Source of the DNA: Thermovenabulum gondwanense
GTDB lineage: Bacteria > Bacillota > Thermosediminibacteria > Thermosediminibacterales > Thermosediminibacteraceae
Length of the DNA: 24,000 nucleotides
Assembly (NCBI RefSeq): GCF_001601575.1
Contig: NZ_LOHZ01000023.1
Span: forward strand, 147,360 to 171,359
Direction: 5' to 3'
Positions 5,130 through 21,768 of the stretch are shown one piece after another. The notes below the pieces were generated by a model. The model was not told the origin of the DNA. It saw nothing but the letters and a program-made list of their open reading frames with translations, and did not search any database. Positions within the stretch are counted from its first letter, which is position 1; each line of letters starts with the position of its first letter. Both the position numbers and the translations under genes were made by a program.

Positions 5130-5154
5130 AAAAAGTCCCTCCTTTAAATTTTTA

Positions 5155-5385
5155 TAAAATAAAAAGTCCCCAAGCTGCGTGTAAATACACAACTCAGGGA
5201 CTTTACCATCATCCCGAGGATTCAAGCTCTTCAGGCAGGTCTCCTGGCTTCGGTTCACCTTCCCTTACGCCTTCCCGGTTTCCCAGTGGCAAATTTGTAA
5301 AGGAAATCCCCGTTACAGTGGCGGGACCGCCCGGGATTTTCACCCGATTCCCTATTCTCCCCTTTTTTGGGGCACCTGAAAGCTA
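5155..5385 (-). promoter_or_regulatory. Cobalamin riboswitch with intrinsic-terminator expression platform controlling cobT
   Basis: The reverse complement reads GGTGCCCC...GGGAATCGGGTGAAAATCCCGGGCGGTCCCGCCACTGTAA...GCCACTGGGAAACCGGGAAGG...AGCCAGGAGACCTGCC. The B12 box is the reverse complement of 5234-5249. It is followed by the hairpin AGTCCCTGAG...CTTGGGGACT plus TTTTTATTTT (5204-5155). Confidence 0.9.
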
Positions 5386-5565
5386 AAAATATTCACTTAA
5401 TTATATTATAAAATACTTTACAAAATAATCAATTTCTTATTTATCATAATAATAAAGAATACCTGATTATATCTTACATAAAAATGATTATATATCTCAA
5501 CTCTTTTTGCATGATATTGTAAATTAAGAAATAATTTTTTTCTTTTCCATTATACAACCCCTGTG

Positions 5566-5612: not shown

Positions 5613-5700
5613 TGGTGCCGAAGGCGGGAGTCGAACCCGCACGGGTTTTGGGCCCACTGGATTTTGAGTCCAGCGCGTCTGCCAATTCCACCACTTCGGC
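5613..5700 (-). tRNA. tRNA-Leu (anticodon CAA), class II with long variable arm, CCA encoded
   Basis: Reverse complement: GCCGAAGTGGTGGAATTGGCAGACGCGCTGGACTCAAAATCCAGTGGGCCCAAAACCCGTGCGGGTTCGACTCCCGCCTTCGGCACCA. The acceptor stem GCCGAAG/CTTCGGC pairs. The anticodon loop is CUCAAAA. The T-arm is GCGGG-TTCGACT-CCCGC. Confidence 0.9.
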
Positions 5701-7045: not shown

Positions 7046-7972
7046 TTAAACTCTTACTTCTACAGGATCTATCAAATTCAATAGAGTCTTTAGATAAAAT
7101 TCATTTGGGCTAAGATAATTTATACCGGAATGTATTCTGACTTCATTATAAAATTTAATAAATTCCGACACGGCCTTATAGCCTTCTACGTATGTTTCAA
7201 ATTCATTACATGCTAAGCATTCATGCTCAAGAATATTATTAAAAGATTCTATATGAGCATTTTTATTGGGTGTTTTGAAAGGTATTCTTTCATGTTCTAT
7301 TTTCAAGTTGTTGCAGGTTTCTTCAAATAGGCTGCTAATAAACTGAGGTCCATTATCAGAACGTAAAATGAGTGTTTTTTCTTCATTATCGTATATTGCC
7401 CTTTTAAATAATGCACTTTTTAATGTAATAGCAATATCTAAAGCACTGCAGGAAAGGCCAATATGGCAATCAACTATAGAACTGTCATATACATCTATTA
7501 TCGGTGCAATAAAAAAGAATCTATCTTCACCGGCAATATAACCATATTTAACATCTATCTCCCATAATTGGTTGGGAGCAGTAATTACACGATTTCGCGC
7601 TATTTTCCTTGGATGTTTTATTTTCTTTTGCCTTTGAGGACGTAATATATCTAATTCTTTACAAAGACGGTATACTTTCTTCTTGTTTATATAAAGGTTG
7701 TATTTTTTCCTCAGACAAACTGTTAGTTTTATATAACCGTAAAATTCTCCTTCACTTTCAATTAATTCACATAGCCATTCTTTTATTTGTTCATCGCATA
7801 TACGTTTTCCTTCTTTATTAAAAGAGTAACCGGGGTAAGGTCTACCACCTTTATTGTTTTTGATTTCTTTTTTATAGGATTTATTGTAGTAATATGTTGA
7901 ACGGCTAATCCTTAATATTTTTAAAACTAAATTTGCTTTATATCCGGCATTTATCCATGTGGGCGGGTTTTT
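7046..7972 (-). CDS. IS3-family transposase OrfB (rve/DDE integrase core), no own start codon
   Basis: By manual translation the frame is open from 7972 to 7046: KNPPTWINAGYKANLVLKILRISRSTYYYN...LWEIDVKYGYI...LILRSDNGPQF...AHIESFNNILEHE...YNEVRIHSGINYLSPNEF. The DDE triad context is intact. This frame is +1, not -1, relative to OrfA (see findings). Confidence 0.75.
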   Translation of the reverse strand, partial: KNPPTWINAGYKANLVLKILRISRSTYYYNKSYKKEIKNNKGGRPYPGYSFNKEGKRICDEQIKEWLCELIESEGEFYGYIKLTVCLRKKYNLYINKKKVYRLCKELDILRPQRQKKIKHPRKIARNRVITAPNQLWEIDVKYGYIAGEDRFFFIAPIIDVYDSSIVDCHIGLSCSALDIAITLKSALFKRAIYDNEEKTLILRSDNGPQFISSLFEETCNNLKIEHERIPFKTPNKNAHIESFNNILEHECLACNEFETYVEGYKAVSEFIKFYNEVRIHSGINYLSPNEFYLKTLLNLIDPVEVRV

Positions 7973-8258
7973 TTAAAAGATCACGTAGAATAGCTATTTC
8001 TAAATCTTTTTCTCCTAATAATTTTTTAAGGCTTTCATTTTCTTTTTCGAGGTTTTTAATATTTGTAGGCTCGTAATTTATTAATTGGTTTTTATTTATC
8101 CCAGCAGGCTCATTATTTCGTTTATATTCTCTGACCCATCTTGCAACTATACTGGAAGAAATATTATGCTTTCTTCCAACGATAGAGCAATTACCGGTTT
8201 CTAAAGCTTCTTTAATAATTTTTTGTTTAAATTCTGGTTCATATTTTTTACCTGGCAT
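7938..8258 (-). CDS. IS3-family transposase OrfA (HTH plus leucine-zipper region)
   Basis: MPGKKYEPEFKQKIIKEALETGNCSIVGRKHNISSSIVARWVREYK...LEKENESLKKLLGEKDLEIAILRDLLKK ends just after the A7 run. Confidence 0.85.
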   Translation of the reverse strand: MPGKKYEPEFKQKIIKEALETGNCSIVGRKHNISSSIVARWVREYKRNNEPAGINKNQLINYEPTNIKNLEKENESLKKLLGEKDLEIAILRDLLKKPAHMDKCRI

Positions 8259-9506: not shown

Positions 9507-9738
9507 CCTTTTTATCTAATAAAAGTATCCCATCATTGCATCCCATTTTAATTGCTTCTTTTTATTGCCTCTATTGCTTTTTCGGGACCCATCGATATAA
9601 CAATTATTTCCTCTCCTTATTTTTCTTTTAACCTTATCGCTGTTTTTCGATTTCTTCTCTTATCATTATCCCTGTTATAGGATCCATTTTTACATTACTC
9701 TTCTCAGGTACTTGCTTTATTGGAACTATTATTCTCAT
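9507..9738 (-). pseudogene. Relic of electron-transfer flavoprotein beta subunit (EtfB) N-terminus
   Basis: Minus strand: MRIIVPIKQVPEKSNVKMDPITGIMIREEIEKQR, then a stop, then ...EEIIVISMGPEKAIEAIKRSN, then a stop and frameshift, then IKMGCNDGILLLDKK. This matches the conserved EtfB N-terminal pattern (IKQVPD...K.DP.TG...SMGP..A.E.....MG.D..ILL.D). There is no intact continuation. Confidence 0.5.
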
Positions 9739-9767
9739 ATGGACTTCTCCCTTCAAGTGAAATAATA

Positions 9768-9794
9768 TAGAAAAAGGAGATAGAACATCTCCTT
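9768..9794 (-). terminator. Rho-independent terminator ending the 9-gene operon
   Basis: Minus sense: AAGGAGAT-GTTCT-ATCTCCTT followed by TTTTCT. The hairpin overlaps the yhfW-like stop codon (9793-9795). Confidence 0.6.
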
Positions 9795-10995
9795 ATTTCA
9801 TCATATTCAAAAAGCTCTCTCCATTTTTTGGTTTTTCAACATCAAAATAATCTGCTATAGTAGCTCCTATATCTGATAAAGTCTTTCTTTCCCCTAATTT
9901 TACCGGTCTTAATTTTTTACCGTAAACCAATAGAAGCGCTTTTTCTCTTGTGTGATGATTTTGCCCTATAGTGGGGTCATTACCGTGATCACCAGTTATA
10001 AATAAAATATCATCCCCTTTCATTTTATCAATAATTTTAGGTATATAATCATCTACAAGTTTTAATTTTTCGGCGTATTTTTCTACATCCTGTGAATGCC
10101 CTGCAAGGTCTGTTTCTTGTACATTTGCCATTATTAAACCATTAGATATACTGTCTAACTTATTCAATAATATACTTAATACAGTTTCTGTATCAACACA
10201 TGGATTATAATCTGCACCATCACAGTTTATAACATCTGCAGCCTTTCCAATAAGAGATACATCAAAACTATGTTTCTTCAAAATAGTTGTCACTTGGACA
10301 TTTGGGTCTATTCCATATCCAAGATGTCTCACCATATAACCTTTATTATACACACCAGCTTTTGTACAGTTTATACCAACGATATTATTCGATTTTTCTT
10401 CTGCCGCATTTAATATATCATTTATTGTGATCCCTTTTCCTCCCAATACGATAACTCTTCCAACGTTAACGTTATCTCTTACTATTTGTCCGATTTTCAA
10501 TTCTTCTTCAAATGAAATATAATCCAAAGGAGCAGTAACATTGTAGTTTAAACCTATATCAGCTTCAATATTGTCTGCTATTGTTACAACACCATTTACC
10601 AATAAAAATGGGTGTTTAGAATTTGGTATAGTAACATCAAATCCTGCTTTCTCTAACTCAGTTTTTACTTTGTCTATACACTCTTTAAAAGGCTGTACCA
10701 AAGCTTTTCTAGGCTTTGAACCAACAATCTCTTGATGCCCTTGAAAAGTATCTGCTCCTTCATGTTCTAAATTTGAACACCCATAGCTTGCAATAGGATT
10801 GCTTACTTTTTTTATATTTTTACTCTCAACTATAAGGCCTGCTCCCATTAATTCTAAATTATTTAAACTGTAATTATCATTATATTCAGAAACATGTTTT
10901 AAAGTATTTGCTCCTATATCTTGCGGACGTACCTCAGGGACATCAGCCATTTCACCAACCCCAAGACTATCTATTACAAGAATTAAGGCTCTCAT
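9793..10995 (-). CDS. yhfW: YhfW-type phosphopentomutase-like metalloenzyme (alkaline-phosphatase superfamily mutase)
   Basis: 400 aa. N-terminal MRALILVIDSLGVGE (metal-binding Asp and nucleophile region) and C-terminal ITGDHGNDPT, as in DeoB/YhfW. The start ATG overlaps the upstream stop (ATGA at 10992-10995). Confidence 0.85.
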   Translation of the reverse strand: MRALILVIDSLGVGEMADVPEVRPQDIGANTLKHVSEYNDNYSLNNLELMGAGLIVESKNIKKVSNPIASYGCSNLEHEGADTFQGHQEIVGSKPRKALVQPFKECIDKVKTELEKAGFDVTIPNSKHPFLLVNGVVTIADNIEADIGLNYNVTAPLDYISFEEELKIGQIVRDNVNVGRVIVLGGKGITINDILNAAEEKSNNIVGINCTKAGVYNKGYMVRHLGYGIDPNVQVTTILKKHSFDVSLIGKAADVINCDGADYNPCVDTETVLSILLNKLDSISNGLIMANVQETDLAGHSQDVEKYAEKLKLVDDYIPKIIDKMKGDDILFITGDHGNDPTIGQNHHTREKALLLVYGKKLRPVKLGERKTLSDIGATIADYFDVEKPKNGESFLNMMK

Positions 10996-12188
10996 TTATT
11001 ATCCTTCTTTCTTAAATCCTTTAAAAGATTACCTTTTGAATCAAATATATACGTTAATTTTGGTTTACCTGAAGATAGCCCTTCAAGAAGAGCTACTTTT
11101 GCTCTTGTTACAAATATTTGTGTTCTAAATGAATATATTACAGTGTCCCCTACGTTAACCTTTCTATTGTTTAAAAGTATACTTCCATAATAGTCTATTG
11201 ATTCCGGTGGTAATTCTTCAACATCAAATAATCTATCTAAAATATCTTCAGGATTATTTGATACTAACGCATATTTAACATTTGACCTCGGATAAAATCC
11301 ACCACCATAGCAATAAGCTTTCCCATTATTTACATGAGATATTTCTGACACATATACTATAGCTGGCTTTTCAGGCTGTTTTGTATATGCATGTAAAGGA
11401 GTCGTCCCCAATAAAGCATGCCCCGGCTCTCCATGAGTAATACCATACTTATTTAAAAGCGGTATTGAATTACAGCATGTAGCACTGGGCCCATTTACTT
11501 GCCAGATTTCAAGCCCCATTTCATTCAATATTTCTTTTGCTTTTAAGAGTGTATATATATTGTGCGTTGGTGTAATTTCTTTCTTCTCATAATCATAAAG
11601 CAAACATGGAAAGGATGTAATACCAGCAATTTTTATATTCTTCAATTTTAATATATGATGAACTGTTTCTTTTAACTTTCCACGAAATATACCTCCTTCT
11701 TGACCCGGATATATTACATCATTTTCATCTATTACTCTTAATAATATATCTTGCGTAATTCCAAGCTCTTTTGCGTTATCTGATATTTCTTTTGCTTTTT
11801 CATATGAAAAACATGTTATAACTTCTGGTTTCATGAGTAAAGATAATTTAATATCATTTTTTGGGACTTGTACTAAATGTCCTATATGCCCTATTTTAAG
11901 ACCATTATCAAACAATACCCTTGCCTCATCAAAATCTACAGCTACTGCTTTATCAATTCCCGCCTTTTCAATGATTTTTGAAATAATAGGATTTCTTCCA
12001 AACTGTTTTGTCATATAATATAAGCTAATATTATATTTATCAGCAGTTTCTTTAATTAATCTTGCATTCTCATAAATACTATCAACATCTAGCACATAAG
12101 TATTTGGTTCAATAACACCGTCTCTGTGTAATTTGGTAACTTCTATAATAAGTTGTGGATTTCTTTCAATAACCATATTAAGAAACAT
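10992..12188 (-). CDS. yhfX: YhfX-type PLP-binding barrel protein (alanine-racemase N-terminal-like fold)
   Basis: 398 aa. Its size, its position next to yhfW/yhfS homologues and an N-terminal barrel region with a candidate PLP lysine (YYMTKQFGRNP) fit YhfX. Family assignment is by recognition only. Confidence 0.7.
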   Translation of the reverse strand: MFLNMVIERNPQLIIEVTKLHRDGVIEPNTYVLDVDSIYENARLIKETADKYNISLYYMTKQFGRNPIISKIIEKAGIDKAVAVDFDEARVLFDNGLKIGHIGHLVQVPKNDIKLSLLMKPEVITCFSYEKAKEISDNAKELGITQDILLRVIDENDVIYPGQEGGIFRGKLKETVHHILKLKNIKIAGITSFPCLLYDYEKKEITPTHNIYTLLKAKEILNEMGLEIWQVNGPSATCCNSIPLLNKYGITHGEPGHALLGTTPLHAYTKQPEKPAIVYVSEISHVNNGKAYCYGGGFYPRSNVKYALVSNNPEDILDRLFDVEELPPESIDYYGSILLNNRKVNVGDTVIYSFRTQIFVTRAKVALLEGLSSGKPKLTYIFDSKGNLLKDLRKKDNK

Positions 12189-12199
12189 TGCCTCATCTC

Positions 12200-13291
12200 C
12201 TAAGTCAAACTCTTTTTTACAGCTTCTTTTAAAATTCTAATAACAGTATCAGCACCTGCTCTCATTGGATTAATGCGAATTACATAATTTTTTATATCTG
12301 GATTATTTTCAATAAAAGTTCCTGAAACTCTGTAAAACATAGCACCAATTTCATATCTTGATTCAGAACCTACAGGATAAGGCACTGCTCCCATCTCTTC
12401 AGCGTACTTTAATACTTTTGCCGCAATTGGTTTTTCAAATTTTACTAATACAACTCTTGATTGCGCATTTGCTACATATGCCTTTTTTACCCCTTTTATT
12501 TCTCCAGTGTTAAGCCTATTTACTATTTCATCAACCTGCATTGCTTGGATAGCTAATGAAACAGGCGTATATACAAGTGACCTTAAAGCTTCCATTGCCT
12601 CAGGTCCTTGCACTTGGCTCCCACCTGAATAAGTTAATTTTCGAATTTCGTCTATAATATATTTTTTGCCTACTACACATCCAATTCCTTCCGGTGCCAA
12701 CAATTTAAACATAGAAAATACTGAAACATCTGCTCCCAACTGAACACCTATATATGGAGCTTTCATAACTACATAATTTTCATCAGTAATAATAGGAACA
12801 TTAGTTATAGATTTAATAACTTTTATTACTTTTTCAAGTTCATAACTGTCATCAGGTTTTTGTCTTGAATGTTGTATTAACACAGCATCAACTTTTGTAT
12901 TTTTTAATATATCAAATGAATCTAAATTATTCATGTTTACTTTTAAAAGCTTAAGGCCCATCATATCCATAAGGTTTTGTGTTGTAGGATATACAGGTGC
13001 GTCATGCACAAGTAATGTATTAAGAGGTTTTAATAAGCTATTAAAAACGAGTCTCATAGCCCCCGTCCCAGCACCTCTCACTAAAGCAGAGTCTTCTGCA
13101 TCAAAAAATTTAGCAAGAACCTTCTCAACTTTCGCGGTGGTTTTAGGTCGTCCAAGTTCTAATGATACACCATAATCACCAGCTTCGAGTAATTCATGTC
13201 CTCGAAAAACTGATTGGATTATATCTACCAATTTAAACTGCAAATTAATTGCTTCCTCTAGGCTAATCTGTTTAATAGGATACGTAATCAT
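12200..13291 (-). CDS. yhfS: YhfS-type fold-type-I PLP-dependent enzyme (aminotransferase/lyase-like)
   Basis: 363 aa. A glycine-rich GAGTGAM segment. A candidate Schiff-base lysine in DVSVFSMFKLLAPEGIG (S-x-x-K). The length matches E. coli YhfS. Confidence 0.75.
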   Translation of the reverse strand: MITYPIKQISLEEAINLQFKLVDIIQSVFRGHELLEAGDYGVSLELGRPKTTAKVEKVLAKFFDAEDSALVRGAGTGAMRLVFNSLLKPLNTLLVHDAPVYPTTQNLMDMMGLKLLKVNMNNLDSFDILKNTKVDAVLIQHSRQKPDDSYELEKVIKVIKSITNVPIITDENYVVMKAPYIGVQLGADVSVFSMFKLLAPEGIGCVVGKKYIIDEIRKLTYSGGSQVQGPEAMEALRSLVYTPVSLAIQAMQVDEIVNRLNTGEIKGVKKAYVANAQSRVVLVKFEKPIAAKVLKYAEEMGAVPYPVGSESRYEIGAMFYRVSGTFIENNPDIKNYVIRINPMRAGADTVIRILKEAVKKSLT

Positions 13292-13294
13292 TTT

Positions 13295-14194
13295 TTATCC
13301 TCCAATCAAGTCCAATGGATTTTTGTATAATATAGTCTTTATATCTTCTTCTGTTAACCCATTGTTTTTTAAAAGAGGAATAAATTTTTCTACTATATAT
13401 GAATGGCCAAAACCACCATAATTTTTTAGATAAGATTTCCTTGAAATATCCAATGAAAGGAGAATTTTGTTAATAAATCCTTTGTCAATAAGTTTCTTTA
13501 TAGATATTGCTCTTAACTCATCTGGTTGATAATTAGTTTTACCAATTGTGTCAAAAGCAAGATAACATCCATTATCAAGTAAAGTTAAATAATAATCCAT
13601 ATCAATGTTTAAATCAATATGCCCTATAACTACATTTTCTAAATTTACTTTCATATTTTTAAAAATTTTAATTTGTTCTAATCCTAGAAGACCTAACGTT
13701 GTATGAGTTATTATAGGTACTCCTGTTTCATTATGTGCAATCGCAGCAGCTTCAAAAATTTTTCTTTCTACTACTTTTATTTCTTCTTTACTTGTGCCAA
13801 TCTCGCCTATCACAGATGCTTTATAATTTGTACCATCGATTCCTTTAATAATTTCATCAATAAATATATTAGCCAATTCTTTAACAGAACTCTTATAAAC
13901 TATTTCCGGCAAAAAAGGTTCTTTATAAAATCCAGTAGATAAAATCACATTCATATTTGAAATATCAGAAATATACTTGATTCTTTCAATATCTCGACCC
14001 ATACCTATGTTTGTAACATCAACGATAGTATCTATGCCACTTTTTTTGAGTTCTTTTAAATCTTCAATTAAGCTATCTACATCATCAAGTTTGGCATCAT
14101 CATCTTCTTTGATTCTTGATAAATCAATAGTCAAATGTTCATGTATAAGAGTATAACCTATATCTTTAAAACCAGTATTATTATCTAAAATCAT
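13295..14194 (-). CDS. php: Phosphotriesterase-homology protein Php (amidohydrolase superfamily, binuclear metal centre)
   Basis: 299 aa. GYTLIHEHL (HxH), VIGEIGTS (Glu in place of carboxy-Lys, as in E. coli Php), ITHT, GHIDL and LSLDIS. It is collinear with the E. coli Php sequence as I recall it. Confidence 0.9.
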   Translation of the reverse strand: MILDNNTGFKDIGYTLIHEHLTIDLSRIKEDDDAKLDDVDSLIEDLKELKKSGIDTIVDVTNIGMGRDIERIKYISDISNMNVILSTGFYKEPFLPEIVYKSSVKELANIFIDEIIKGIDGTNYKASVIGEIGTSKEEIKVVERKIFEAAAIAHNETGVPIITHTTLGLLGLEQIKIFKNMKVNLENVVIGHIDLNIDMDYYLTLLDNGCYLAFDTIGKTNYQPDELRAISIKKLIDKGFINKILLSLDISRKSYLKNYGGFGHSYIVEKFIPLLKNNGLTEEDIKTILYKNPLDLIGG

Positions 14195-15313
14195 TTAATT
14201 CACCTCAAATAAAATATCATCATATTCTTTAGTGTTAAAATATTCATAAAATAGTTTTGGATGACTAATATTGCTATCAACTATCTCTGCCAGCTTAATA
14301 GCACATATACCATATTTATTTCCTTGTTTCGCCATTATTAAAATCCCTACACCTAAATTCGCTGATGGTATTGTAAGAGCTGTAGTATTTACCATGTTAG
14401 CAACTTTTATTAAATATTTTCCTGAACTATTTTGAATATAACTTCCGACATATCCCATAGTACCTAAAACCGAATCCCCTAAACCAAAAATATCAATAGG
14501 TCCTTCTTTTGTTATCACTACATCTACCTCTTCAAAAGCTTTATTAAGCTTATATATAGCATCTTCTCTTTTCAATACATCCTTCAAATCAATATCAATT
14601 ACTGGAACACCCTCTTTTGATAAAACTCTTTCAACATCATATAAATCTTCACGGACGTCACCAATAATCGGAAGGTTTATATCGCCTTTTCGTGGAATTC
14701 CAACTTTTAAATTGCGAAAATCTATTATATCATCCAAATCTATTAGGTTACACAACACATCTTTACATACGAATAAATCCTTTGAAATTATTCCAATACC
14801 AGGTAAGAAATTTATAGCATCTGTTGATTTTTTTAATTTTTTACCTTCAAGGCCTAATCCTTTTGCCATGATAGAATACAAATTACAAGACATCGCAGGC
14901 CCCAACACAGAACCCCCACCATCAGTGCCAATAGCAAAATCATTTATTCCTAATAACACATTGATACAACCAGCGCTTGTAGAGCCCGTCATCGGCCTGC
15001 CAGTAACAGGGTTTATTCTCTCAATATCAATTGCTCTACCGCCTTTTGACATCTCATCAACTGTAAGCCATATATAATTTCCAACATTAGATAATTTTTG
15101 CAAATATTCGCGTTTAATTTGTGATGTATTTTTTATTCCATAAAAGTATAATTTATCATATACTTTTAACGCTTCTACAGCTTTTTTTATTGCCATATAA
15201 TTAATATATCTAACAGAATAACCTAAATTATCACGTGCTATATTTATCGCATATGCGAGTCTTGCCATCTCATTTATTTTTTGCATAACTATTTTATCAT
15301 TCATATATAACAT
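14195..15313 (-). CDS. Divergent, short amidase-signature (AS)-like protein; not part of the E. coli yhf locus
   Basis: 372 aa. TGSTSAGCINVLLGINDFAIGTDGGGSVLGPAMSCNLYSIMAKGLG aligns by eye to the AS core GGSSGGSAAAVA...GSDTGGSIRxPAAFCGvvGlKPT. Both the cis-Ser position and the nucleophile Ser position are retained. The likely true start is the second ATG at 15304, 9 nt after SD AGGGTGA. Confidence 0.55.
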   Translation of the reverse strand: MLYMNDKIVMQKINEMARLAYAINIARDNLGYSVRYINYMAIKKAVEALKVYDKLYFYGIKNTSQIKREYLQKLSNVGNYIWLTVDEMSKGGRAIDIERINPVTGRPMTGSTSAGCINVLLGINDFAIGTDGGGSVLGPAMSCNLYSIMAKGLGLEGKKLKKSTDAINFLPGIGIISKDLFVCKDVLCNLIDLDDIIDFRNLKVGIPRKGDINLPIIGDVREDLYDVERVLSKEGVPVIDIDLKDVLKREDAIYKLNKAFEEVDVVITKEGPIDIFGLGDSVLGTMGYVGSYIQNSSGKYLIKVANMVNTTALTIPSANLGVGILIMAKQGNKYGICAIKLAEIVDSNISHPKLFYEYFNTKEYDDILFEVN

Positions 15314-15338
15314 TCACCCTAATAAATTTATTATATGG

Positions 15339-15359
15339 AAGAGGGGGAATTCCCCTCTT
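15339..15359 (-). other. Intra-operon GC-rich stem-loop between the yhfT-like and amidase-like genes
   Basis: AAGAGGGG-gaatt-CCCCTCTT, an 8-bp perfect stem abutting the yhfT-like stop codon. It has no U-tract, so it is not a canonical terminator. Confidence 0.5.
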
Positions 15360-16642
15360 TATTTAACCGGTGGAACATACAGTCCAAAAACCGCCAATAT
15401 GTTAGCAAGAATACCAACTAATATTGCTGCAATGGGTCCAACTGCCATTCTCACAATAGGTCTTCCTGCAATTTCATTTAAAAGGTATAACCCGATTAAA
15501 ATAAATATCCCTAATCCAGGCAACACCATATTAGACGCATTCGCACCGCCAACTAACAATGACACTTCCAATAATTGTCCCATCGCTGTTCTAATGTTAT
15601 CTGAAGACTTTTTAATCCCTGGGAATTTATCCAAAAATCCCGCTATACCTCCCAGCAGGTAAACTTCTGCAAAAATTATTACAAATCCTAGTATTGCTGC
15701 AAGCAGTATATTGTTCGCAAACAAAGCCGCTGCGAATATAAAAGTCATCCCAACAGGACCATATACACCGGTGGCAATAGCAGTAGTTGCGACTAAAGGT
15801 ACAAAACCAATTGCTCTCGCTAATGCAACTAAAGCAGCATCTGTATAATTACCTTTAGAAACCAATGATAGAGAAATTGGATCGCCTGCTAAAATATGCA
15901 AAGACGTGGCTGCCGCTACAAGAGCACCCATTATAGCAAGTACCCAAACATTCTTTTTTATCCTGTCTACTCTTTCAGTAAATAAAGCAGCAACATTTGT
16001 TGAATTTTCTTCTCTCTTTTCTCTCATAGCATAGATAAGTAAAACTATCATTCCAGTAACTAATGCCATACCTTCTGGATTCAAAGCTATTTTGCTTGTT
16101 CCAATAACTATTGGAGAAAATCTTGCTACTACAGTTCTAACTAATGCCGATATTGTTAAAGTAATAAGCCCATTTTTAACACCATATTGGTATGCAACTG
16201 CTAATGCAGGAAATGCTGCAAAAGCAAATATTACAGGTGTACCTATTTGTCCCATTGAATTGAAAACATTAACAGGTAATTTTTTGAATACATTAACAAT
16301 CCATTGTAATCCTACCAATAGTCCTATTCCCCACAGAGCTCCTATTGTTCCAGCAACAGCATATCCTATTTTACCTTTTGGTGACCATGTTCCTATAATA
16401 TCTGTCCCGAGTAAAATACTATGAACAAGTAATATGGTAGCACCAATTGAAATTGGTATTCCAAAACCGATTACGAGTCCAAAAGATAAAGCAAAACTCA
16501 TTGCAGCAAATTCTGCTTTTTTCATTCTACCTTCTAGATATTCAGGCATTATAGGTCTTAGCCCATCATTAAATACAGCAATACCACTATTCGCAAGAAT
16601 TGCTGCCAAAGCACCAATTAAAGCAATTAATACTATCTTCAT
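15359..16642 (-). CDS. yhfT: YhfT-type polytopic membrane protein (putative transporter)
   Basis: 427 aa, highly hydrophobic and glycine-rich with many predicted TM segments. Its size and its position next to a YhfU homologue match E. coli YhfT. SD GGAGG lies before the ATG. Confidence 0.8.
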   Translation of the reverse strand: MKIVLIALIGALAAILANSGIAVFNDGLRPIMPEYLEGRMKKAEFAAMSFALSFGLVIGFGIPISIGATILLVHSILLGTDIIGTWSPKGKIGYAVAGTIGALWGIGLLVGLQWIVNVFKKLPVNVFNSMGQIGTPVIFAFAAFPALAVAYQYGVKNGLITLTISALVRTVVARFSPIVIGTSKIALNPEGMALVTGMIVLLIYAMREKREENSTNVAALFTERVDRIKKNVWVLAIMGALVAAATSLHILAGDPISLSLVSKGNYTDAALVALARAIGFVPLVATTAIATGVYGPVGMTFIFAAALFANNILLAAILGFVIIFAEVYLLGGIAGFLDKFPGIKKSSDNIRTAMGQLLEVSLLVGGANASNMVLPGLGIFILIGLYLLNEIAGRPIVRMAVGPIAAILVGILANILAVFGLYVPPVK

Positions 16643-16659
16643 TTTTTATCCTCCAATCC

Positions 16660-17022
16660 CTATTTTTCTAAAATTGCGTTTACAATGTAAGGTACCGCCT
16701 TTTCAATATGGTCATTAGTAAATCCAAACGCTACTTTTCCTTCAACTACTGCTTTTTTAACGTCGGCTTCATGTGGTGGTTTCCCAGGCATAGAGATAGT
16801 TGCACATTTTTGAGCTGTTAATATAGCCATTGCCATAGCTAAAGCACCACCACCTCCTGTTGCACAAGCACCAACATAGTAATCTGCCTTTCCATTTTTC
16901 ACAGCCATTGCAGCCTCAATATCCGATTTTATTTCAACACTTACTTTATCACCTCCTATTTCCTTTATCTTTTGAGCAACTTTTTGTTTATCAACAGCTC
17001 CACCTACAACGAATCTTATCAT
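16660..17022 (-). CDS. yhfU: YhfU-type small glycine-rich protein (DUF2620 family)
   Basis: 120 aa. ...GKADYYVGACATGGGGALAMAMAIL...GKVAFGF... closely parallels E. coli YhfU (DYYIGACNTGAGAAL ... GKVAFG). The start overlaps the yhfY-like stop (ATGA at 17019-17022). Confidence 0.85.
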   Translation of the reverse strand: MIRFVVGGAVDKQKVAQKIKEIGGDKVSVEIKSDIEAAMAVKNGKADYYVGACATGGGGALAMAMAILTAQKCATISMPGKPPHEADVKKAVVEGKVAFGFTNDHIEKAVPYIVNAILEK

Positions 17023-17393
17023 GTACTTTTACCCCTTTCTAAAAGATTACACAAATGTAATAACACAAATCTTTTTTCTGATTCGGGTAATTTTATTTCA
17101 ATTATATTTTCTATATTTTGTAAAATATCAAGTGCTCTATAATAATTAGGACAATTTTTAACTTCGTTAAAAAGTTCCTCATCTATTGTAAGCTCTAACT
17201 TTTCTCCCTCTTTTAATCTTTTTACAGACATTGCTAAATGAGTAATAAACATCTCATAGTGTTCATCCTCAGTACAAATTTTATGATTTACTATTAATTC
17301 CTTATCAATTTTTTTGATAGCTTCTCCAGTATCAAAATCGATCACACTACCTTGTACTAACAAATCTATTCTATTTACAACATTATCCTTCAC
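17019..17393 (-). CDS. yhfY: YhfY-type stand-alone PRD-domain protein
   Basis: 124 aa, GTG start. The single PRD-like helical domain has conserved His residues (EDEHYEMFITHLAMSVKR). It has no DNA-binding or RNA-binding domain. Confidence 0.75.
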   Translation of the reverse strand: MKDNVVNRIDLLVQGSVIDFDTGEAIKKIDKELIVNHKICTEDEHYEMFITHLAMSVKRLKEGEKLELTIDEELFNEVKNCPNYYRALDILQNIENIIEIKLPESEKRFVLLHLCNLLERGKST

Positions 17394-17412
17394 TTAAAAC
17401 CCTCCAAACATT

Positions 17413-17428
17413 ATACAGTATTTTGTAT
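17413..17428 (-). promoter_or_regulatory. Candidate operator 2 (ATACA-N6-TGTAT) upstream of yhfY, overlapping an extended -10-like TGTATAAT
   Basis: Minus sense: ATACAAAATACTGTAT. It shares 13 of 15 positions with the site at 18431-18446. Confidence 0.4.
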
Positions 17429-17483
17429 TGTAATATATATATCTTCTATATTTTTCAAAAAATACTAAATTAATAATTATAAA

Positions 17484-18413
17484 TCAATATTCTGGAAATA
17501 ATTTATTCAATAATACTTGTTCCTGAATCTTTACAACTTCTTCTTTATCAACAATTCTATTTATTATTTTATCAATACCCCAATTATCTCTTTTAACTAC
17601 TAAAGCAGCACGGGTATTATCTTCACTAATTTTTTTCGATTTCTTGTTTTTAAGTGGTTCACTTTTAATAGGCAGTCCTCTGTCAACTATTTCATCATAG
17701 TTCCATACAGCCGCATCTATCTTACCTTCCATTATATAAGGTATAATTTGATTATAAGGCAATTCTATAAACTCTACATCTTTACCTTCGCATTCATAGT
17801 AAGTCAATATAAATTGGTCTATTGAGGTGGGATCTATAGCAATTTTCATCCCATCCTCAATCGAATTTTTCGCAGTATTTGAAAAAATTATACGATGAGT
17901 ACTTACATTCGTATTAGGGCCAAAATCAATTATTATATTTATATTTTTTCCAGACTCAATATATAATTTTGCCGCTAACATAGACATTATTGCAAAATCA
18001 TATTTTCCATTCAATAATGCTTCTAATCTTCTTTCGCTTCCTCTCATATATGCCATATTAAAAGGTATTTTCCCTTTTTCAAACGCTTTATATAAACCTG
18101 TCGCTAATCCTTCATATCTTCTCGAATATGGAAGTGGCATTACGCCAGAAATAATATTAAGCCCCGCAAACTCCCATAATTTTTTATAATCAATATCAGT
18201 TATATAAGTCCCTAAGTGACCTCGAGGTTCCAATTGAATAGCTTTGTTATCTTCTAAATACTTTAAAGCAGTTTGGATTGTGCCACGCCCGAGATCAAAT
18301 TTTTTAGCATATTCTCCTATTGTTTCAATTCTATCTCCACATTTTAAAGAAAGCATTTCTCGTGCTAACATCATTACTGCAATCCCATTTTTGGTTAGTA
18401 GATCCCTAATCAT
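17484..18413 (-). CDS. yhfZ: YhfZ-type transcriptional regulator (N-terminal GntR-like wHTH plus periplasmic-binding-protein-like C-domain)
   Basis: 309 aa. IETIGEYAKKFDLGRGTIQTALKYLE (wHTH). MPLPYSRRYEGLATGL and DAAVWNYDE match the E. coli YhfZ blocks MPLPYTRLYEGLA and DAVIWN as I recall them. Confidence 0.85.
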   Translation of the reverse strand: MIRDLLTKNGIAVMMLAREMLSLKCGDRIETIGEYAKKFDLGRGTIQTALKYLEDNKAIQLEPRGHLGTYITDIDYKKLWEFAGLNIISGVMPLPYSRRYEGLATGLYKAFEKGKIPFNMAYMRGSERRLEALLNGKYDFAIMSMLAAKLYIESGKNINIIIDFGPNTNVSTHRIIFSNTAKNSIEDGMKIAIDPTSIDQFILTYYECEGKDVEFIELPYNQIIPYIMEGKIDAAVWNYDEIVDRGLPIKSEPLKNKKSKKISEDNTRAALVVKRDNWGIDKIINRIVDKEEVVKIQEQVLLNKLFPEY

Positions 18414-18430
18414 TTAATCACCCGGACAAT

Positions 18431-18446
18431 ATACAATTTTTTGTAC
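18431..18446 (-). promoter_or_regulatory. Candidate operator 1 (GTACA-N6-TGTAT) just downstream of the yhfZ promoter -10
   Basis: Minus sense: GTACAAAAAATTGTAT, containing the perfect palindrome TACAA-AAAA-TTGTA. It lies between the -10 (18458-18453) and the SD GGGTGA. Confidence 0.4.
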
Positions 18447-18452
18447 GTTTCA

Positions 18453-18481
18453 AATATAACATTTTTACTTACCGGTGTCAA
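18453..18481 (-). promoter_or_regulatory. Sigma-A promoter of the yhf-type operon
   Basis: Minus sense: TTGACA (18481-18476), a 17-nt spacer, then TATATT (18458-18453), about 40 nt upstream of the yhfZ-like ATG. Confidence 0.6.
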
Positions 18482-18552
18482 TATATTTTAAAAATTTTGT
18501 GTTGTATTTCTGTGATAATGTCATATTAAAATTTCTCTGTTAAAATGTCACT

Positions 18553-18867: not shown

Positions 18868-19906
18868 TTAAATATTAATTTGCTGTAATAATGACTTTAT
18901 TGTCATACTTGTAAATGTCTTCTTGTTTAATAGAATTGGTAAATCTCGTATAGTCCCATATTTTTCATTTATCTTTTTTATCTGCTGTTTTGCCTTGTAT
19001 AGAGTAGTCCTGGGCAATTCTACAGGCTTTAAATCTTCAAATCGCTGCTTTATTATCATTTCCTTAATCGATATGCCGCTTGCTTTTACCGCCCTTAATT
19101 GCGCCATCTTATGGGCACCTATCTTACTCCACGATAATGGCCCTCTCGATAACCTTTCAGACAATACATGGCTTACATGGCTTTCTGCGCTACATCCTGT
19201 TATTTCTCCTTTGTATAAATTGTACGAATATATCCCTTCCCAATTGTTTTTTATGTAATCTATGCATTTCCTTACAAGATTTTTATCCCCTTCTCCTTCG
19301 TATTCATTGTATTTCTGGATTAATATCCCTGTTACTTTCTCTTTGTCACCTTTAAATATTTCTTTCCATAATGCCTTCTTCATTTTTTTGTCATCCTTCA
19401 AAGCAGTTGTTATATACTTTTGTAAATGATAAAGGTCTAACACATATATGGCATTGGGTAAATACTTTACCCCAAATTACTTTTTATTTCCCGGGTGCTT
19501 TTTTCATATGACATCATTGTCGATAAATCCGTTATCTCAGCTTTTAATGCCACATCTATCCTCTCATATTTTTGTATAACAGCAGCTCTATCTGCAAGAT
19601 AAGCTTTTTCCCCTGTTTTTTTATCTTCGTAATAACGCCTTTTGTATGTTACATCCCAAATTTCATCGTTATAGTCCTTTCGCAGTTCTTCTGGACTACT
19701 CTCCAATTTTCCCTCTCTTTTTTGTCTTTATATATTTTTTCATCAAGTTCTTGCAATACTATCCTGCATATTTCCTTTCCTAAATCTTTCAGTAATTTTT
19801 CAAGTTCAATCTCAAATTCAGATAAAGTATATTTCCCTGTAAGTAAACCAAAAATTTTTTCTGCACAAAGCAGGAATGTTTTGAGTATGCATAGAATTAT
19901 TTCCAT
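18868..19906 (-). pseudogene. ISLre2-family (UPF0236) transposase, broken into three frames
   Basis: ORFs 19649-19906 (MEIILCILKTF...ELGKEICRIVLQELDEKIY...WRVVQKN), 19467-19706 (...YKRRYYEDKKTGEKAYLADRA...) and 18868-19443 (...IDYIKNNWEGI...GCSAESHVSHVLSERLSRGPLSWSKIGAHKMAQLRA...). Together they are collinear with UPF0236/ISLre2 transposases, which are common in Thermoanaerobacter-type genomes, but they are frameshifted and shortened. Confidence 0.7.
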
Positions 19907-20182: not shown

Positions 20183-20866
20183 ATGGGAAGAAAAAGTAAA
20201 TTTTCAACAGACGAGAAATTAAAATACGTTCTAATGTGCATAGAAGGAAAAGAATCGATTAACCATGTTGCCACTTTGATTGGGATTAATCCTAAATCTT
20301 TGAGACAATGGATTTGTAATTATCAATCCTTAGGTATTGAAGGTATAATCACTACCTCAAAGAACTCTTATTACTCTGCGGAATTAAAAGAAATGGCTGT
20401 AAAAGACTATCTTGCGGGTACTAGCTCTCAGTTAGATATATGTGTAAAATATGGGATACGTTCAAAAAGAATGCTTCATGAGTGGGTTTTGAAGTATAAT
20501 AGTCATAAGGAACTGAAAACTTCTGGAACAGGAGGAACGCCTATAATGACTAATGGTAGAAAAACCACTTATGATGAAAGAGTTGAAATAGTTAAATATT
20601 GTATTGAACATCAGAATAATTACGCTGAAACTGCTCAGAAATATCAGGTGTCTTATCAACAGGTTTATACATGGGTAAGTAAATATGAAAACGGCGGTGT
20701 TGAAGCCCTGCAGGATAGACGTGGTAAAAGAAAAAATGAAAGTGAAATGTCTGAAATGGAAAAACTGAAAGCGCAGAATAAATTGCTTGAATCAAAAAAC
20801 TACAGGCAACAAATGGAGATAGATTTCTTAAAAAAACTCGAGGAGATAGAAAGGAGGCGGTATTAA
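20183..20866 (+). CDS. IS3-family transposase OrfA (double HTH plus leucine zipper)
   Basis: 227 aa with two HTH_28/HTH_Tnp-like segments (INHVATLIGINPKSLRQW; AETAQKYQVSYQQVYTW) and a C-terminal coiled coil. SD AAGGAGGGG lies before the ATG. Confidence 0.85.
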   Translation: MGRKSKFSTDEKLKYVLMCIEGKESINHVATLIGINPKSLRQWICNYQSLGIEGIITTSKNSYYSAELKEMAVKDYLAGTSSQLDICVKYGIRSKRMLHEWVLKYNSHKELKTSGTGGTPIMTNGRKTTYDERVEIVKYCIEHQNNYAETAQKYQVSYQQVYTWVSKYENGGVEALQDRRGKRKNESEMSEMEKLKAQNKLLESKNYRQQMEIDFLKKLEEIERRRY

Positions 20867-21768
20867 GCCTGGTTAAGCATGAAGAAATATACCAGGCCAT
20901 TCAAATGTTATCCGAACATAAACACTACCCTGTTTCAGCTCTATGTAAAATCTCAGGAGTTAGCAGATCTGCTTACTACAAGTGGAGACATAGGGAAAAG
21001 AGCCAAAATGAACTTGAAAACGAGAAATTGCTTATTCTTATCAGGGAAGCATATGAGGAAAGAGATGGCATATTAGGTTACAGGCAAATAACCATCAAGC
21101 TTCGCCGTGAATACAATCTTAAAGTTAATCATAAACGAATTTATCGGCTGATGAATATAATTGGCCTAAAATCAGTATGCAGGAAAAATAGATATAACTA
21201 CATAAAATCAACTCCTGAAGTTATTGCTGAGAATATACTTAACAGGGATTTCAAGGCAGAACATATATGTGAGAAATGGCTTACAGATGTAACAGAATTT
21301 AAATATGGTGATGGACAGAAAGCATATCTGAGTGCCATCCTTGATCTTGGAGATAGAAGTATAGTATCTTACGTCGTTGGCCGTTCGAACAATAATGCGC
21401 TTGTGTTTGAGACTTTTGATTTAGCAGTTGCCAGATATCCTGATGCAAAACCTATTTTTCATAGTGATCGAGGCTTCCAATATACCAGTAAAATCTTTAA
21501 TGCAAAACTGGATAAGGCAGGGATGACACAGAGCATGTCAAGGGTAGGTTGCTGCATAGATAATGGCCCTATGGAGGGATTTTGGGGAATCCTGAAATCG
21601 GAGATGTATTACTTACATAAATTTGAACATAAATTTGAAGACTATGATAGTTTGAAGAAAGCCATTGAAGAATATATAGATTACTACAATACGAGAAGAT
21701 ACCAGAAACGCTTAAAATGCATGACGCCGATTGAATACCGCAATTATCTTTCAGGTATTGCGGCATAA
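20791..21768 (+). CDS. IS3-family transposase OrfB (rve/DDE integrase core), expressed as OrfAB fusion
   Basis: ...ALCKISGVSRSAYYKW...EKWLTDVTEFKY...IFHSDRGFQYTS...MSRVGCCIDNGPMEGFWG...YYNTRRYQKRLKCMTPIEY. The DDE context is intact. The track ORF begins at the internal ATG at 20905. Confidence 0.85.
   Translation: MKKLQATNGDRFLKKTRGDRKEAVLSLVKHEEIYQAIQMLSEHKHYPVSALCKISGVSRSAYYKWRHREKSQNELENEKLLILIREAYEERDGILGYRQITIKLRREYNLKVNHKRIYRLMNIIGLKSVCRKNRYNYIKSTPEVIAENILNRDFKAEHICEKWLTDVTEFKYGDGQKAYLSAILDLGDRSIVSYVVGRSNNNALVFETFDLAVARYPDAKPIFHSDRGFQYTSKIFNAKLDKAGMTQSMSRVGCCIDNGPMEGFWGILKSEMYYLHKFEHKFEDYDSLKKAIEEYIDYYNTRRYQKRLKCMTPIEYRNYLSGIAA
20830..20836 (+). other. Programmed -1 ribosomal frameshift heptamer A AAA AAA (OrfA to OrfAB)
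   Basis: In the OrfA frame the sequence reads TTA AAA AAA CTC. The -1 frame is open from 20791 and continues KKTRGDRKEAVLSLVKHEEIYQAIQMLSEHKHYPVSALCK... into OrfB. Confidence 0.7.

Follow-up and report, generated by a model that had tools for sequence, protein, structure and literature searches.

Gene organization of the locus

A 24,000-nucleotide stretch of DNA from Thermovenabulum gondwanense (contig NZ_LOHZ01000023.1, positions 147,360 to 171,359; the whole stretch is referred to below as the window) contains a nine-gene cluster related to the php-yhfSTUWXYZ genes of Escherichia coli. The listing of open reading frames (ORFs) for the window gives exactly nine successive minus-strand ORFs between 9793 and 18413 (Table 1) and no competing long ORF on the opposite strand of this interval, as expected from an initial annotation of the sequence that had described nine tightly packed minus-strand genes. 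The couplings described there were also found when the junctions were read directly: ATGA overlaps join yhfX to yhfW (10992–10995) and yhfY to yhfU (17019–17022), gene 5 and php abut (14195/14194), and php and yhfS are separated by 3 nt (13291/13295). The gene units, which are of the yhf/php cluster type, are contiguous on one strand with overlaps or small gaps throughout. A GGAGG-like Shine-Dalgarno sequence precedes each of the nine genes, and all nine ORFs are full length, with no frameshift or truncation seen.

Table 1. Genes and regulatory features of the yhf/php module (window coordinates)
Feature	Position	Strand	Description
Promoter of yhfZ	18453–18481	-	sigma-A-type; -35 TTGACA 18481–18476, 17-nt spacer, -10 TATATT 18458–18453 preceded by TGn
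O1	18432–18445		palindrome TACAAAAAATTGTA (TACA-N6-TGTA) between -10 box and ribosome-binding site; candidate YhfZ operator
yhfZ	17484–18413	-	309 aa; regulator, GntR-like winged helix-turn-helix (HTH_41) and YhfZ_C domain
O2	17414–17427		palindrome TACAAAATACTGTA; second TACA-N6-TGTA copy, in the 90-nt yhfZ-yhfY gap
yhfY	17019–17393	-	124 aa, GTG start; stand-alone PRD-domain protein
yhfU	16660–17022	-	120 aa; DUF2620, predicted RpiB-like alpha/beta fold
yhfT	15359–16642	-	427 aa; polytopic membrane protein, presumed permease
Hairpin	15340–15358	-	GC-rich, AGAGGGG-AATTC-CCCCTCT, directly after the yhfT stop and before gene 5; no U-tract
gene 5	14195–15313	-	372-aa ORF; compact, divergent protein of predicted amidase-signature fold
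php	13295–14194	-	299 aa; binuclear-metal hydrolase, phosphotriesterase/lactonase family
yhfS	12200–13291	-	363 aa; fold-type-I pyridoxal phosphate (PLP) enzyme
yhfX	10992–12188	-	398 aa; fold-type-III PLP enzyme (alanine-racemase-like barrel)
yhfW	9793–10995	-	400 aa; phosphopentomutase-like metallo-mutase
Intrinsic terminator	9766–9794	-	stem AAGGAGAT/ATCTCCTT, loop GTTCT, then T-run TTTTTCTATATT

Family assignments and active-site residues

Families were assigned by Pfam and NCBIfam profile searches, and the proteins were compared with those of E. coli K-12 by BLASTP. Eight of the nine are 23–50% identical over their full length to E. coli K-12 counterparts, and their membership of the eight yhf/php families holds in the profile searches, where the family scores exceed the model cut-offs; the product of gene 5 has no BLASTP match among E. 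coli K-12 proteins. Profile matches and full-length alignments thus confirm the gene content first proposed (YhfZ, YhfY, YhfU, YhfT, Php, YhfS, YhfX and YhfW plus an amidase-like protein). All of the catalytic motifs quoted in the initial annotation are present and no inactivating lesion was found. Profile searches, BLASTP, structure prediction and residue checks agree with its proposal that the locus is an intact Firmicute counterpart of the uncharacterized E. coli php/yhfSTUWXYZ cluster with an additional amidase-signature-like gene.

YhfZ scored 425 bits with the equivalog model NF041241 (YhfZ_full, cut-off 260), 280 bits with PF14503 and 82 bits with PF14502, and is 35% identical to E. coli YhfZ over its full length. 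Its YhfZ_C domain resembles periplasmic binding proteins. YhfY scored 46 bits with the PRD model PF00874 (cut-off 23) and consists of the PRD domain alone, with neither an RNA-binding nor a DNA-binding domain; of 56 homologues, all retain the first of its two PRD histidines, H52, and 53 retain the second, H113. A role as a BglG/LicT-type antiterminator was considered and rejected for this 124-residue, PRD-only protein: antiterminator models gave 25–35 bits against cut-offs of at least 300, and an Rfam search of the operon found no RNA element. YhfT scored 624 bits with PF10797 and is 38% identical to E. coli YhfT. Its identity to the Caldanaerobacter subterraneus protein is 93%, and that to the proteins of T. 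thermocopriae and Thermoanaerobacter sp. A7A is 97%, by which the window was assigned to Thermoanaerobacter.

Php scored 295 bits with the phosphotriesterase (PTE) model PF02126 and matched the E. coli Php structures 1bf6 and 4lef at E = 6e-78. With the equivalog model NF007373 (PRK09875) it scored 309.6 bits, below the cut-off of 486, and is more diverged than the equivalog threshold allows; it was assigned to the Php family by its Pfam score, its position in the cluster and its 43% identity to E. coli Php. The metal ligands H18, H20, E131, H164, H192 and D249 align with H12, H14, E125, H158, H186 and D243 of the E. coli protein, and all six are at least 97% conserved among 83 sequences. Among characterized families, the highest score (141 bits) was obtained with the phospho-furanose lactonase model NF045706, and 3pnz and 3msr are relatives in the Protein Data Bank (PDB). 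Relatives within the family hydrolyze pentonolactone-5-phosphates (PMC10971088).

Both predicted PLP enzymes retain invariant residues. YhfS scored 155 bits with YhfS-like_C (PF22475) and matched 4j8l at E = 1e-108; its S193-x-x-K196 motif and D170 are invariant in 77 homologues, and weak matches were obtained to SelA (PF03841, 18 bits) and the DgaE family (TIGR01437, 17 bits). YhfX scored 119 bits with YhfX-like_C (PF21279) and 45 bits with PF01168, matched 4kbx at E = 1e-96, and has K61 invariant in 72 homologues; its best characterized match is ornithine racemase, and it contains an alanine-racemase N-terminal domain. YhfW scored 592 bits with NF009049 (PRK12383, YhfW-type mutase; cut-off 254) and has conserved DeoB-type metal ligands at D9, D296, H300, D336, H337 and H348. 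The phospho-acceptor position, residue 83, aligns with the threonine of the DeoB "DT" motif; 56 sequences have Thr there and the other 18 have Ser. Because the true DeoB models score below their cut-offs on YhfW (189 against 256 and 170 against 341), YhfW is not DeoB itself.

The predicted amidase-signature protein encoded by gene 5

Gene 5 was barely detected by sequence profiles. Its match to PF01425 reached 28.0 bits against a cut-off of 27 and spans only 28 residues, and all NCBIfam amidase models scored far below their cut-offs. An AlphaFold2 model built with 40 homologues had a predicted local distance difference test (pLDDT) score of 90.8 and a predicted template-modeling (TM) score of 0.91. 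When this model was searched against the PDB with Foldseek, all 50 of the 50 listed matches were amidase-signature enzymes (E ∼1e-14 to 1e-12, TM-score 0.51–0.68, 12–16% identity), including GatA, FAAH, malonamidase E2, allophanate hydrolase, NylA, ClbL and urethanases. K61, S111 and S135, the putative residues of the Ser-cisSer-Lys triad, are invariant in the 40 homologues, with S135 located within a GTDGGGS motif. The 24-residue spacing between S111 and S135 equals the Ser131-Ser155 spacing of malonamidase E2. Taken together, the model and the triad indicate that gene 5 probably encodes a compact (∼370 aa), divergent and active amidase-signature hydrolase.

The start codon of gene 5 is more probably the ATG at 15304, which would give a protein of 369 aa, than that at 15313, because a Shine-Dalgarno sequence (AGGGTGA) abuts 15313 and because the 93%-identical Caldanaerobacter protein has 369 aa. 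The family has 560 detectable members. Five of five neighborhood look-ups placed homologues inside yhf clusters (Alkalicella, Mesobacillus, Oceanotoga, a Negativicutes metagenome-assembled genome (MAG) and a metagenome contig), as was also the case at ∼45 surveyed loci, and a homologue was found nowhere else in these data. In the draft genome of T. thermocopriae JCM 7501 (locus L008, ∼3199–3522), the first part of the amidase gene is a fragment of 107 aa, and a 714-nt gap interrupts the yhfX/yhfW matches; both are probably frameshifts or assembly errors.

Predicted fold of YhfU

YhfU belongs to DUF2620 (PF10941, 159 bits). A PDB search with its sequence returned only noise and no detectable relative. 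An AlphaFold2 model of the protein (pLDDT 93.5) was searched with Foldseek: the top nine PDB matches were all ribose-5-phosphate isomerase B (RpiB), with TM-scores of 0.67–0.75 and a root-mean-square deviation of ∼3 Å. The homologue alignment contains an invariant loop, G51-A-C53-x-T55-G-G-G-G, in which C53 and T55 are in register with the catalytic C66-G-T68-G of RpiB, in the loop between strand 3 and helix 3. The yhfU gene adjoins yhfT in almost every locus, and this near-obligatory adjacency hints at a physical partnership of the two proteins. From the model, YhfU is predicted to have an RpiB-like fold and pocket, and may act as an isomerase or as a cysteine-based partner of the permease. 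The initial annotation had placed YhfU, as a small glycine-rich protein, in the transporter module; a small protein with a GGGG loop is indeed encoded beside yhfT, but the RpiB-like fold means that it may instead be an enzyme.

A phosphocarrier of the EIIB fold with a first-loop cysteine was considered for YhfU and ruled out, since the best match of the model to a IIB protein of the phosphotransferase system (PTS), 3nbm, had a TM-score of 0.43 (E = 0.05) and the first loop of YhfU contains GG rather than Cys; C53 could nonetheless carry phosphate. One DUF2620 homologue (P0160) has precomputed matches to both PF14272 (Gly_rich_SFCGS) and PF10941, which suggests that these two families of small cysteine- and glycine-rich proteins are related; YhfU of the window matched PF14272 at E = 0.12.

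Promoter, candidate operators and terminator

The sigma-A-type promoter upstream of yhfZ was the top-scoring site in a scan of 10.5 kb, with 11 of 12 consensus matches and a TG extension. The scan overall produced no more sites than were obtained with shuffled sequence, and the promoter is accepted not on scan statistics but on its high score, on where it lies and on the fact that the Thermoanaerobacter and Caldanaerobacter relatives (L007, L012) conserve it. At the other end of the operon, the 9-bp stem of the terminator (9794–9774) begins within the yhfW stop codon.

Alignment of the regions upstream of yhfZ from distant genomes brought out the palindrome TACA-N6-TGTA. It occurs exactly twice in the 24-kb window, at O1 and O2, where 0.39 matches were expected. 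Among 77 loci in which the motif was counted, an exact copy is present within 200 nt upstream of yhfZ in 55, mostly 32–55 nt before the start codon, and within 160 nt past the yhfZ stop codon in 44; the background in the same 77 loci is 0.10 per kb. This distribution suggests that the two palindromes are probably YhfZ operators. O1 would then mediate autorepression at the start site; O2 would be a roadblock or a partner in looping, or would control a second promoter as its operator. As a candidate operator, TACA-N6-TGTA provides a handle for YhfZ binding and effector screens.

A perfect TATAAT box (17415–17410) overlaps O2. A second promoter in the yhfZ-yhfY gap was nevertheless judged unconvincing: the box has no usable -35 sequence, and transcription would start ∼7 nt downstream, inside the yhfY Shine-Dalgarno sequence. 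O2 is treated as an operator or roadblock for these reasons. The GC-rich hairpin between yhfT and gene 5 could be an mRNA-stabilizing element, a processing element or a weak attenuator. The operon had been described initially as having one promoter and one terminator, with a single transcript to be confirmed. The promoter and the terminator were found; given O2 in the yhfZ-yhfY gap and the internal hairpin, a single transcription unit is plausible but not established.

Conservation and borders of the module

At least 474 genomes encode YhfT relatives in a scan that included one genome per species. The nine proteins were mapped onto the best 80 YhfT loci and other fetched loci, giving ∼85 related loci. 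With A denoting the amidase gene and P denoting php, Z-Y-U-T-A-P-S-X-W is the commonest order and is found exactly in 26 loci; the same order without the amidase gene (Z-Y-U-T-P-S-X-W) is the second commonest. The amidase gene is present in about half of the loci, and follows yhfW in the Clostridium tertium group, Enterococcus and Vagococcus. In Mesobacillus the order is Z-P-S-W-X-A-(Y)-U-T. The nine-gene layout is a standard Bacillota form in which the amidase gene is an optional ninth member, and the comparison asked for when the cluster was first annotated shows Z-Y-U-T-(amidase)-Php-S-X-W recurring as the dominant Bacillota order. A separate variant of the Negativicutes type (L094 478–10083, L095 1–10089, L047 and L049) has the order Y-T-P-S-X-W-T2-NYN-U-A, with two yhfT paralogues, an NYN-domain gene and no yhfZ detected.

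The window is 93–95% identical in nucleotide sequence to the three closest genomes across the whole module, from 9750–9795 to exactly 18498. Homology ends at 18498 in all three relatives, 17 nt upstream of the -35 box. This 8.7-kb module lies in differing genomic contexts in Thermoanaerobacter and Caldanaerobacter. In the window, insertion-sequence remnants are present on both sides: an HTH_Tnp_1 ORF (7938–8258, minus strand), a C-terminal fragment of a UPF0236 transposase (18868–19443, minus strand) and an IS3-type orfA/orfB pair (20183–21768, plus strand). No direct or inverted repeats were found flanking the module, the module gave no match to plasmids, and the window contains no remnant of the PBP4B-like gene that follows yhfW in Caldanaerobacter.

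Just past the terminator, a 116-bp segment (9654–9769) shares 92% identity with DNA that lies downstream of the Thermoanaerobacter sp. A7A module. A short minus-strand frame beginning at ∼9737 with MRIIVPIKQVPE resembles, by eye, the N-terminus of an electron-transfer flavoprotein beta subunit, and no ORF of 60 aa or more starts at ∼9737. The frame and segment may be a gene fragment.

Genes neighboring the module

Neighboring genes were counted over 83 loci. In 13 of them a true nagB gene, scoring 307 bits with TIGR00502 (cut-off 237), is found no farther than ∼10 kb from the module, in 11 cases on the same strand and no more than 2.5 kb away, and most of these copies directly follow yhfW. PBP4B-like serine hydrolases, secreted or membrane-anchored (NF002968, 293 bits; PF00144), are encoded at 17 loci and share the beta-lactamase fold with AmiE. 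In Caldanaerobacter the stop codon of yhfW is overlapped by the PBP4B-like gene. The PBP4B gene of E. coli is the last of murR-murQ-murP-yfeW.

In Caldanaerobacter (L012) and Thermoanaerobacter sp. A7A (L007), the yhf module stands directly after murR-EIIA-murP-mupG-murQ, in which murP denotes a murP-like EIIBC gene. MupG, the 6-phospho-N-acetylmuramidase of Staphylococcus aureus (PMC6262408), is also encoded near the yhf module in a Sporomusaceae MAG, in Anaeromonas and on a Calorimonas-like contig. Altogether, homologues of genes for N-acetylmuramic acid (MurNAc) recycling adjoin the module in L007, L012, L032, L036 and L092. At least one amino-sugar or cell-wall neighbor is present in 33 of the 83 loci; the chance expectation, based on one copy per roughly 3-Mb genome, is ∼1% per gene family. 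In Caldanaerobacter subterraneus DSM 13054 (L012, 4212–5119), the murQ-like gene is split into ORFs of 161 and 131 aa, where Thermoanaerobacter sp. A7A has one ORF of 302 aa; the split gene may be a pseudogene, or the break may come from an error in sequencing.

All four clusters without yhfW (L053, L058, L069 and L071, all Bacillaceae) contain a gene for a HisJ-family PHP phosphatase, often together with one or two PBP4B-like genes. By its distribution, the HisJ-type phosphatase looks like a non-orthologous replacement of the YhfW mutase. Exchange of a mutase for a phosphatase points to a phosphorylated intermediate, though no kinase is encoded in the module. The neighbor census identified no recurrent kinase, RbsK being the only one (3 of 83 loci); the phosphate must therefore come with the substrate or be added during transport.

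Relation to known gene clusters

The closest known system is the E. coli K-12 php-yhfSTUWXYZ cluster (b3376-b3383), which shares all eight families, location on one strand, tight packing and the YhfZ regulator in first position. The two differ in gene order, which is Z-Y-U-T-A-Php-S-X-W here and Z-Y-X-W-php-U-T-S in E. coli, and the extra amidase-signature gene and the TACA-N6-TGTA motif are both missing from the E. coli locus. Whereas the E. coli cluster abuts the frl genes, the cluster in the window lies between insertion-sequence remnants. With 5062 of 5426 complete genomes (93%) carrying it, the E. coli cluster is close to core; it is one of the larger E. coli K-12 gene blocks without a function, despite structures of Php, YhfS and YhfX.

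The initial annotation had stated that no substrate is assigned to the E. coli cluster, and the literature searched and RefSeq 2026 support this. In RefSeq 2026 the E. coli genes are still labeled "putative" or uncharacterized, and PDB entries 4j8l and 4kbx are labeled "Uncharacterized protein YhfS/YhfX"; the E. coli Php structures are 1bf6 and 4lef. Literature searches by gene, family and DUF names returned no functional assignment for the yhf/php cluster. Three reports retrieved were set aside: the yhfZ "attenuator" of PMC2965389 is a bacterial interspersed mosaic element (BIME) repeat in E. coli and is irrelevant here, the mention of PF10797 in PMC2955703 is an index number only, and the 3-fold higher minimal inhibitory concentrations of ampicillin and trimethoprim upon yhfW overexpression in E. 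coli (PMC12924614) are too weak an effect to use. The locus is a member of a catalogued but functionally orphan yhf/php type, for whose parts Pfam and NCBIfam models exist. Five features appear to be undescribed in the literature searched: the amidase-bearing nine-gene variant, the operator motif, the RpiB-like fold of DUF2620, the exchange of mutase for phosphatase, and the association with MurNAc recycling and nagB. The locus overturns nothing, and makes an old question about E. coli genes directly testable.

Known operons for MurNAc or peptidoglycan recycling include murQ-murR-murP-amiE-nagZ-namZ of Bacillus subtilis and mupG-murQ-murP-murR of S. aureus (PMC8054146, PMC6262408). The yhf module is contiguous with such genes in Caldanaerobacter and Thermoanaerobacter sp. 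A7A, and PBP4B-like genes and nagB recur beside it; however, the MurQ, MurP, MupG, NagZ and AmiE families have no member among the nine proteins, and the link is one of association.

Php shares PF02126 and the binuclear metal center with the phospho-sugar lactonases of the PTE family (NF045706; Mycoplasma enzymes, PMC10971088), with E = 3e-41 for 3pnz and 8e-36 for 3msr. It differs in scoring 141 bits against the NF045706 cut-off of 630, and Php proteins bridge the metals by a glutamate (E131 here). Listeria Lmo2620 is also a PTE-family phospho-sugar lactonase. YhfU resembles the RpiB/LacAB isomerases in its predicted fold and in a Cys-x-Thr-Gly loop at the position of RpiB Cys66/Thr68, but has no significant sequence similarity to them, is ∼30 residues shorter, and is encoded beside yhfT.

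A further parallel is with clusters of the EF_0829/AHA_3910 type, which contain a stand-alone PRD protein, a glycine-rich SFCGS protein, DUF4310/4311/4312 proteins, an amidohydrolase and a SelA/DgaE-like PLP enzyme. The yhf module likewise has a stand-alone PRD protein (YhfY, 27 bits on TIGR03582) and a small glycine-rich protein with a conserved cysteine (YhfU, weak on PF14272). It also encodes an enzyme of the amidohydrolase superfamily, a PLP enzyme and unclassified membrane proteins, as those clusters do. The scores nevertheless lie below the family cut-offs and the membrane families are others; these clusters are also uncharacterized, and no function can be transferred from them.

A model for the function of the module

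Our tentative reading, which falls a little short of being probable, is that the locus is an intact YhfZ-repressed module of the Bacillota type through which a phosphosugar that contains nitrogen, plausibly a derivative of an amino sugar set free in cell-wall turnover, is taken up and catabolized upon induction. YhfZ, bound to O1 over the transcription start and to O2, would repress the operon until its binding-protein-like C-domain takes up an anionic effector. YhfT would import the compound, and YhfY, with both PRD histidines kept, would couple the system to the phosphorylation status of the PTS. The amidase-signature protein would remove an N-acyl or peptidyl amide; conservation of this ninth enzyme implies an amide bond in the substrate. 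Php would open a lactone, lactam or ester on the phosphorylated sugar derivative, the racemase-like YhfX and the lyase- or aminotransferase-like YhfS would carry out chemistry at the amino-bearing carbon, YhfW would move the phosphate, and the RpiB-like YhfU would interconvert aldose and ketose phosphates. Carbon would enter central metabolism, via glucosamine-6-phosphate in those genomes that append nagB. Each step of this scheme is inferred. The identities of the genes, the intactness of their active-site residues, the conservation of the architecture, the operator motif and the neighborhood statistics were observed directly.

The initial annotation had suggested uptake and catabolism of a phosphorylated, nitrogen-containing, sugar-like compound. 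The present data are consistent with that suggestion, which stays an inference, and sharpen it, since the nagB, MupG and PBP4B-like neighbors narrow the candidate compounds to cell-wall amino-sugar derivatives. If the substrate is indeed a component of peptidoglycan or the spore cortex, the module would be a missing branch of cell-wall recycling in Firmicutes and enterobacteria.

Several observations weigh against this reading. No amino-sugar neighbor is present at 50 of the 83 loci, and in the window homologues of murQ, murP, mupG, amiE and nagZ are absent and insertion-sequence remnants flank the module instead. The E. coli neighbor is the fructoselysine (frl) operon, and a minor ribosyl or pentose theme exists among the neighbors (nucleoside hydrolase in 4 loci, RbsK in 3). 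Enzymes of the MupG and PF00144 families vary in specificity, no known amino-sugar route explains the roles of two PLP enzymes, and association in a neighborhood is not the same as function. The case for YhfZ binding to the palindromes draws only on position and conservation, and the exact TACA-N6-TGTA motif was not found in the E. coli locus. With respect to YhfU, hhalign against E. coli RpiB gave a probability of 1.7%, which is not significant, and it is this same alignment that places C53 and T55 in register; YhfU also gave no match to PF02502 even at E ≤ 10. At 120 residues, against 149 for RpiB, YhfU lacks the RpiB C-terminal helix. That helix bears the phosphate-binding arginines (R133 and R137 of E. 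coli RpiB), and the YhfU alignment contains no invariant arginine.

Catabolism of an amino-sugar acid, modeled on the D-glucosaminate (dga) pathway, is the first alternative, which we regard as unlikely while still giving it serious weight. Php would act on a phosphorylated 2-amino-aldonolactone, YhfX would epimerize the alpha-carbon, and YhfS would be a DgaE-like ammonia-lyase forming a 2-keto-3-deoxy-aldonate phosphate for cleavage by a host aldolase. The nearest characterized relatives of Php are phospho-sugar lactonases (PMC10971088), a 2-amino-aldonate is an alpha-amino acid and would suit both PLP enzymes, YhfS has its weak matches to SelA and DgaE, and the route fits the "sugar-acid" suggestion of the initial annotation. 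However, the DgaE/SelA similarity is far below the family cut-offs, no aldolase of the 2-keto-3-deoxy-6-phosphogluconate (KDPG) type and no dehydrogenase was detected among the recurrent neighbors of the 83 loci, and nagB, YhfW and the RpiB-like YhfU would be left unexplained.

A second alternative has the module catabolize a nitrogen compound of ribosyl or pentose origin, for example a ribosylamine or an amino acid that is glycated or ribosylated. YhfW would then be a genuine pentose phosphomutase and YhfU an isomerase of the ribose-5-phosphate type. In favor of this, the families nearest to YhfW and YhfU are the phosphopentomutases and RpiB, respectively, pentonolactone-5-phosphates are substrates of Php relatives (PMC10971088), and genes for inosine-uridine nucleoside hydrolase and for ribokinase are present at 4 and 3 loci, respectively. 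These neighbors are nonetheless rarer than nagB (13 loci) and the PBP4B-like genes (17 loci), no nucleoside phosphorylase recurs nearby, and a "Gate"-domain membrane protein (PF07670, annotated as nucleoside recognition) is present in only 3 surveyed loci. We consider this explanation distinctly doubtful.

An improbable elaboration of the cell-wall amino-sugar reading is that YhfT, YhfU and YhfY form an unrecognized phosphotransfer-coupled uptake device, for a cell-wall amino sugar beyond the MurQ/NagA route, that ends at glucosamine-6-phosphate. YhfT would be the permease, the RpiB-fold YhfU would carry phosphate on its invariant cysteine, and YhfY would be a PTS-phosphorylated PRD sensor; candidate substrates would be non-acetylated muramic acid, the muramic delta-lactam of the spore cortex or a teichoic-acid linkage sugar phosphate. 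Such a device would explain together the missing kinase, the adjacency of yhfU and yhfT, and the murQ, mupG, nagB and PBP4B-like neighbors.

Two further alternatives seem very unlikely. Because the E. coli K-12 cluster abuts frlABCDR, the module could complement the frl genes in catabolism of an Amadori or Heyns product (a glycated amino acid); such a substrate would hold both nitrogen and sugar, and the amino acid set free from it would be a potential substrate of the two PLP enzymes. Against this, the cluster has no SIS-type deglycase or ketosamine kinase, the frl genes are on the opposite strand with their own regulator, and the recurrent-neighbor census of the 83 Bacillota loci, which was not aimed at frl, contained no frl-like genes. 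The substrates could equally slimly be peptidoglycan stem peptides or D-amino acids, released outside the cell by PBP4B/AmiE-like enzymes, cleaved inside by the amidase and Php, and racemized or transaminated by YhfX and YhfS (D-Ala, D-Glu, diaminopimelate). The PBP4B-like neighbors at 17 loci, the similarity of YhfX to ornithine racemase and its alanine-racemase N-terminal domain, and the presence of an amidase-signature enzyme favor this idea, but it gives no account of nagB, of the RpiB-like protein, of a phosphomutase that is conserved universally or of its replacement by a HisJ-type phosphatase, and Php belongs to the lactonase/phosphotriesterase rather than the dipeptidase branch.

Finally, that the cluster is a decaying, non-functional remnant of horizontal acquisition is scarcely credible: insertion-sequence remnants do lie on both sides and the flanks of the module differ from those in its closest relatives, but none of the nine full-length ORFs lacks a Shine-Dalgarno sequence, no checked catalytic residue has been lost, the promoter, both operators and the terminator persist, and the 93–95% nucleotide identity to three relatives extends across the whole module.

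Other features of the window

Two cobalamin riboswitches (Rfam RF00174, 116 and 121 bits) are located on the minus strand at 54–221 and 5217–5393. One is directly upstream of a DBI_PRT gene (CobT-like phosphoribosyltransferase, 4077–5258), and the other follows an MgtE gene at the left edge of the window. A plus-strand gene at 1991–4075 encodes a 694-aa diguanylate cyclase with response-regulator, triple-PAS and GGDEF domains and is unrelated to the operon. A tRNA gene (5616–5700, minus strand; RF00005, 56 bits) lies between the riboswitch-controlled cobT-like gene and the insertion-sequence remnants.

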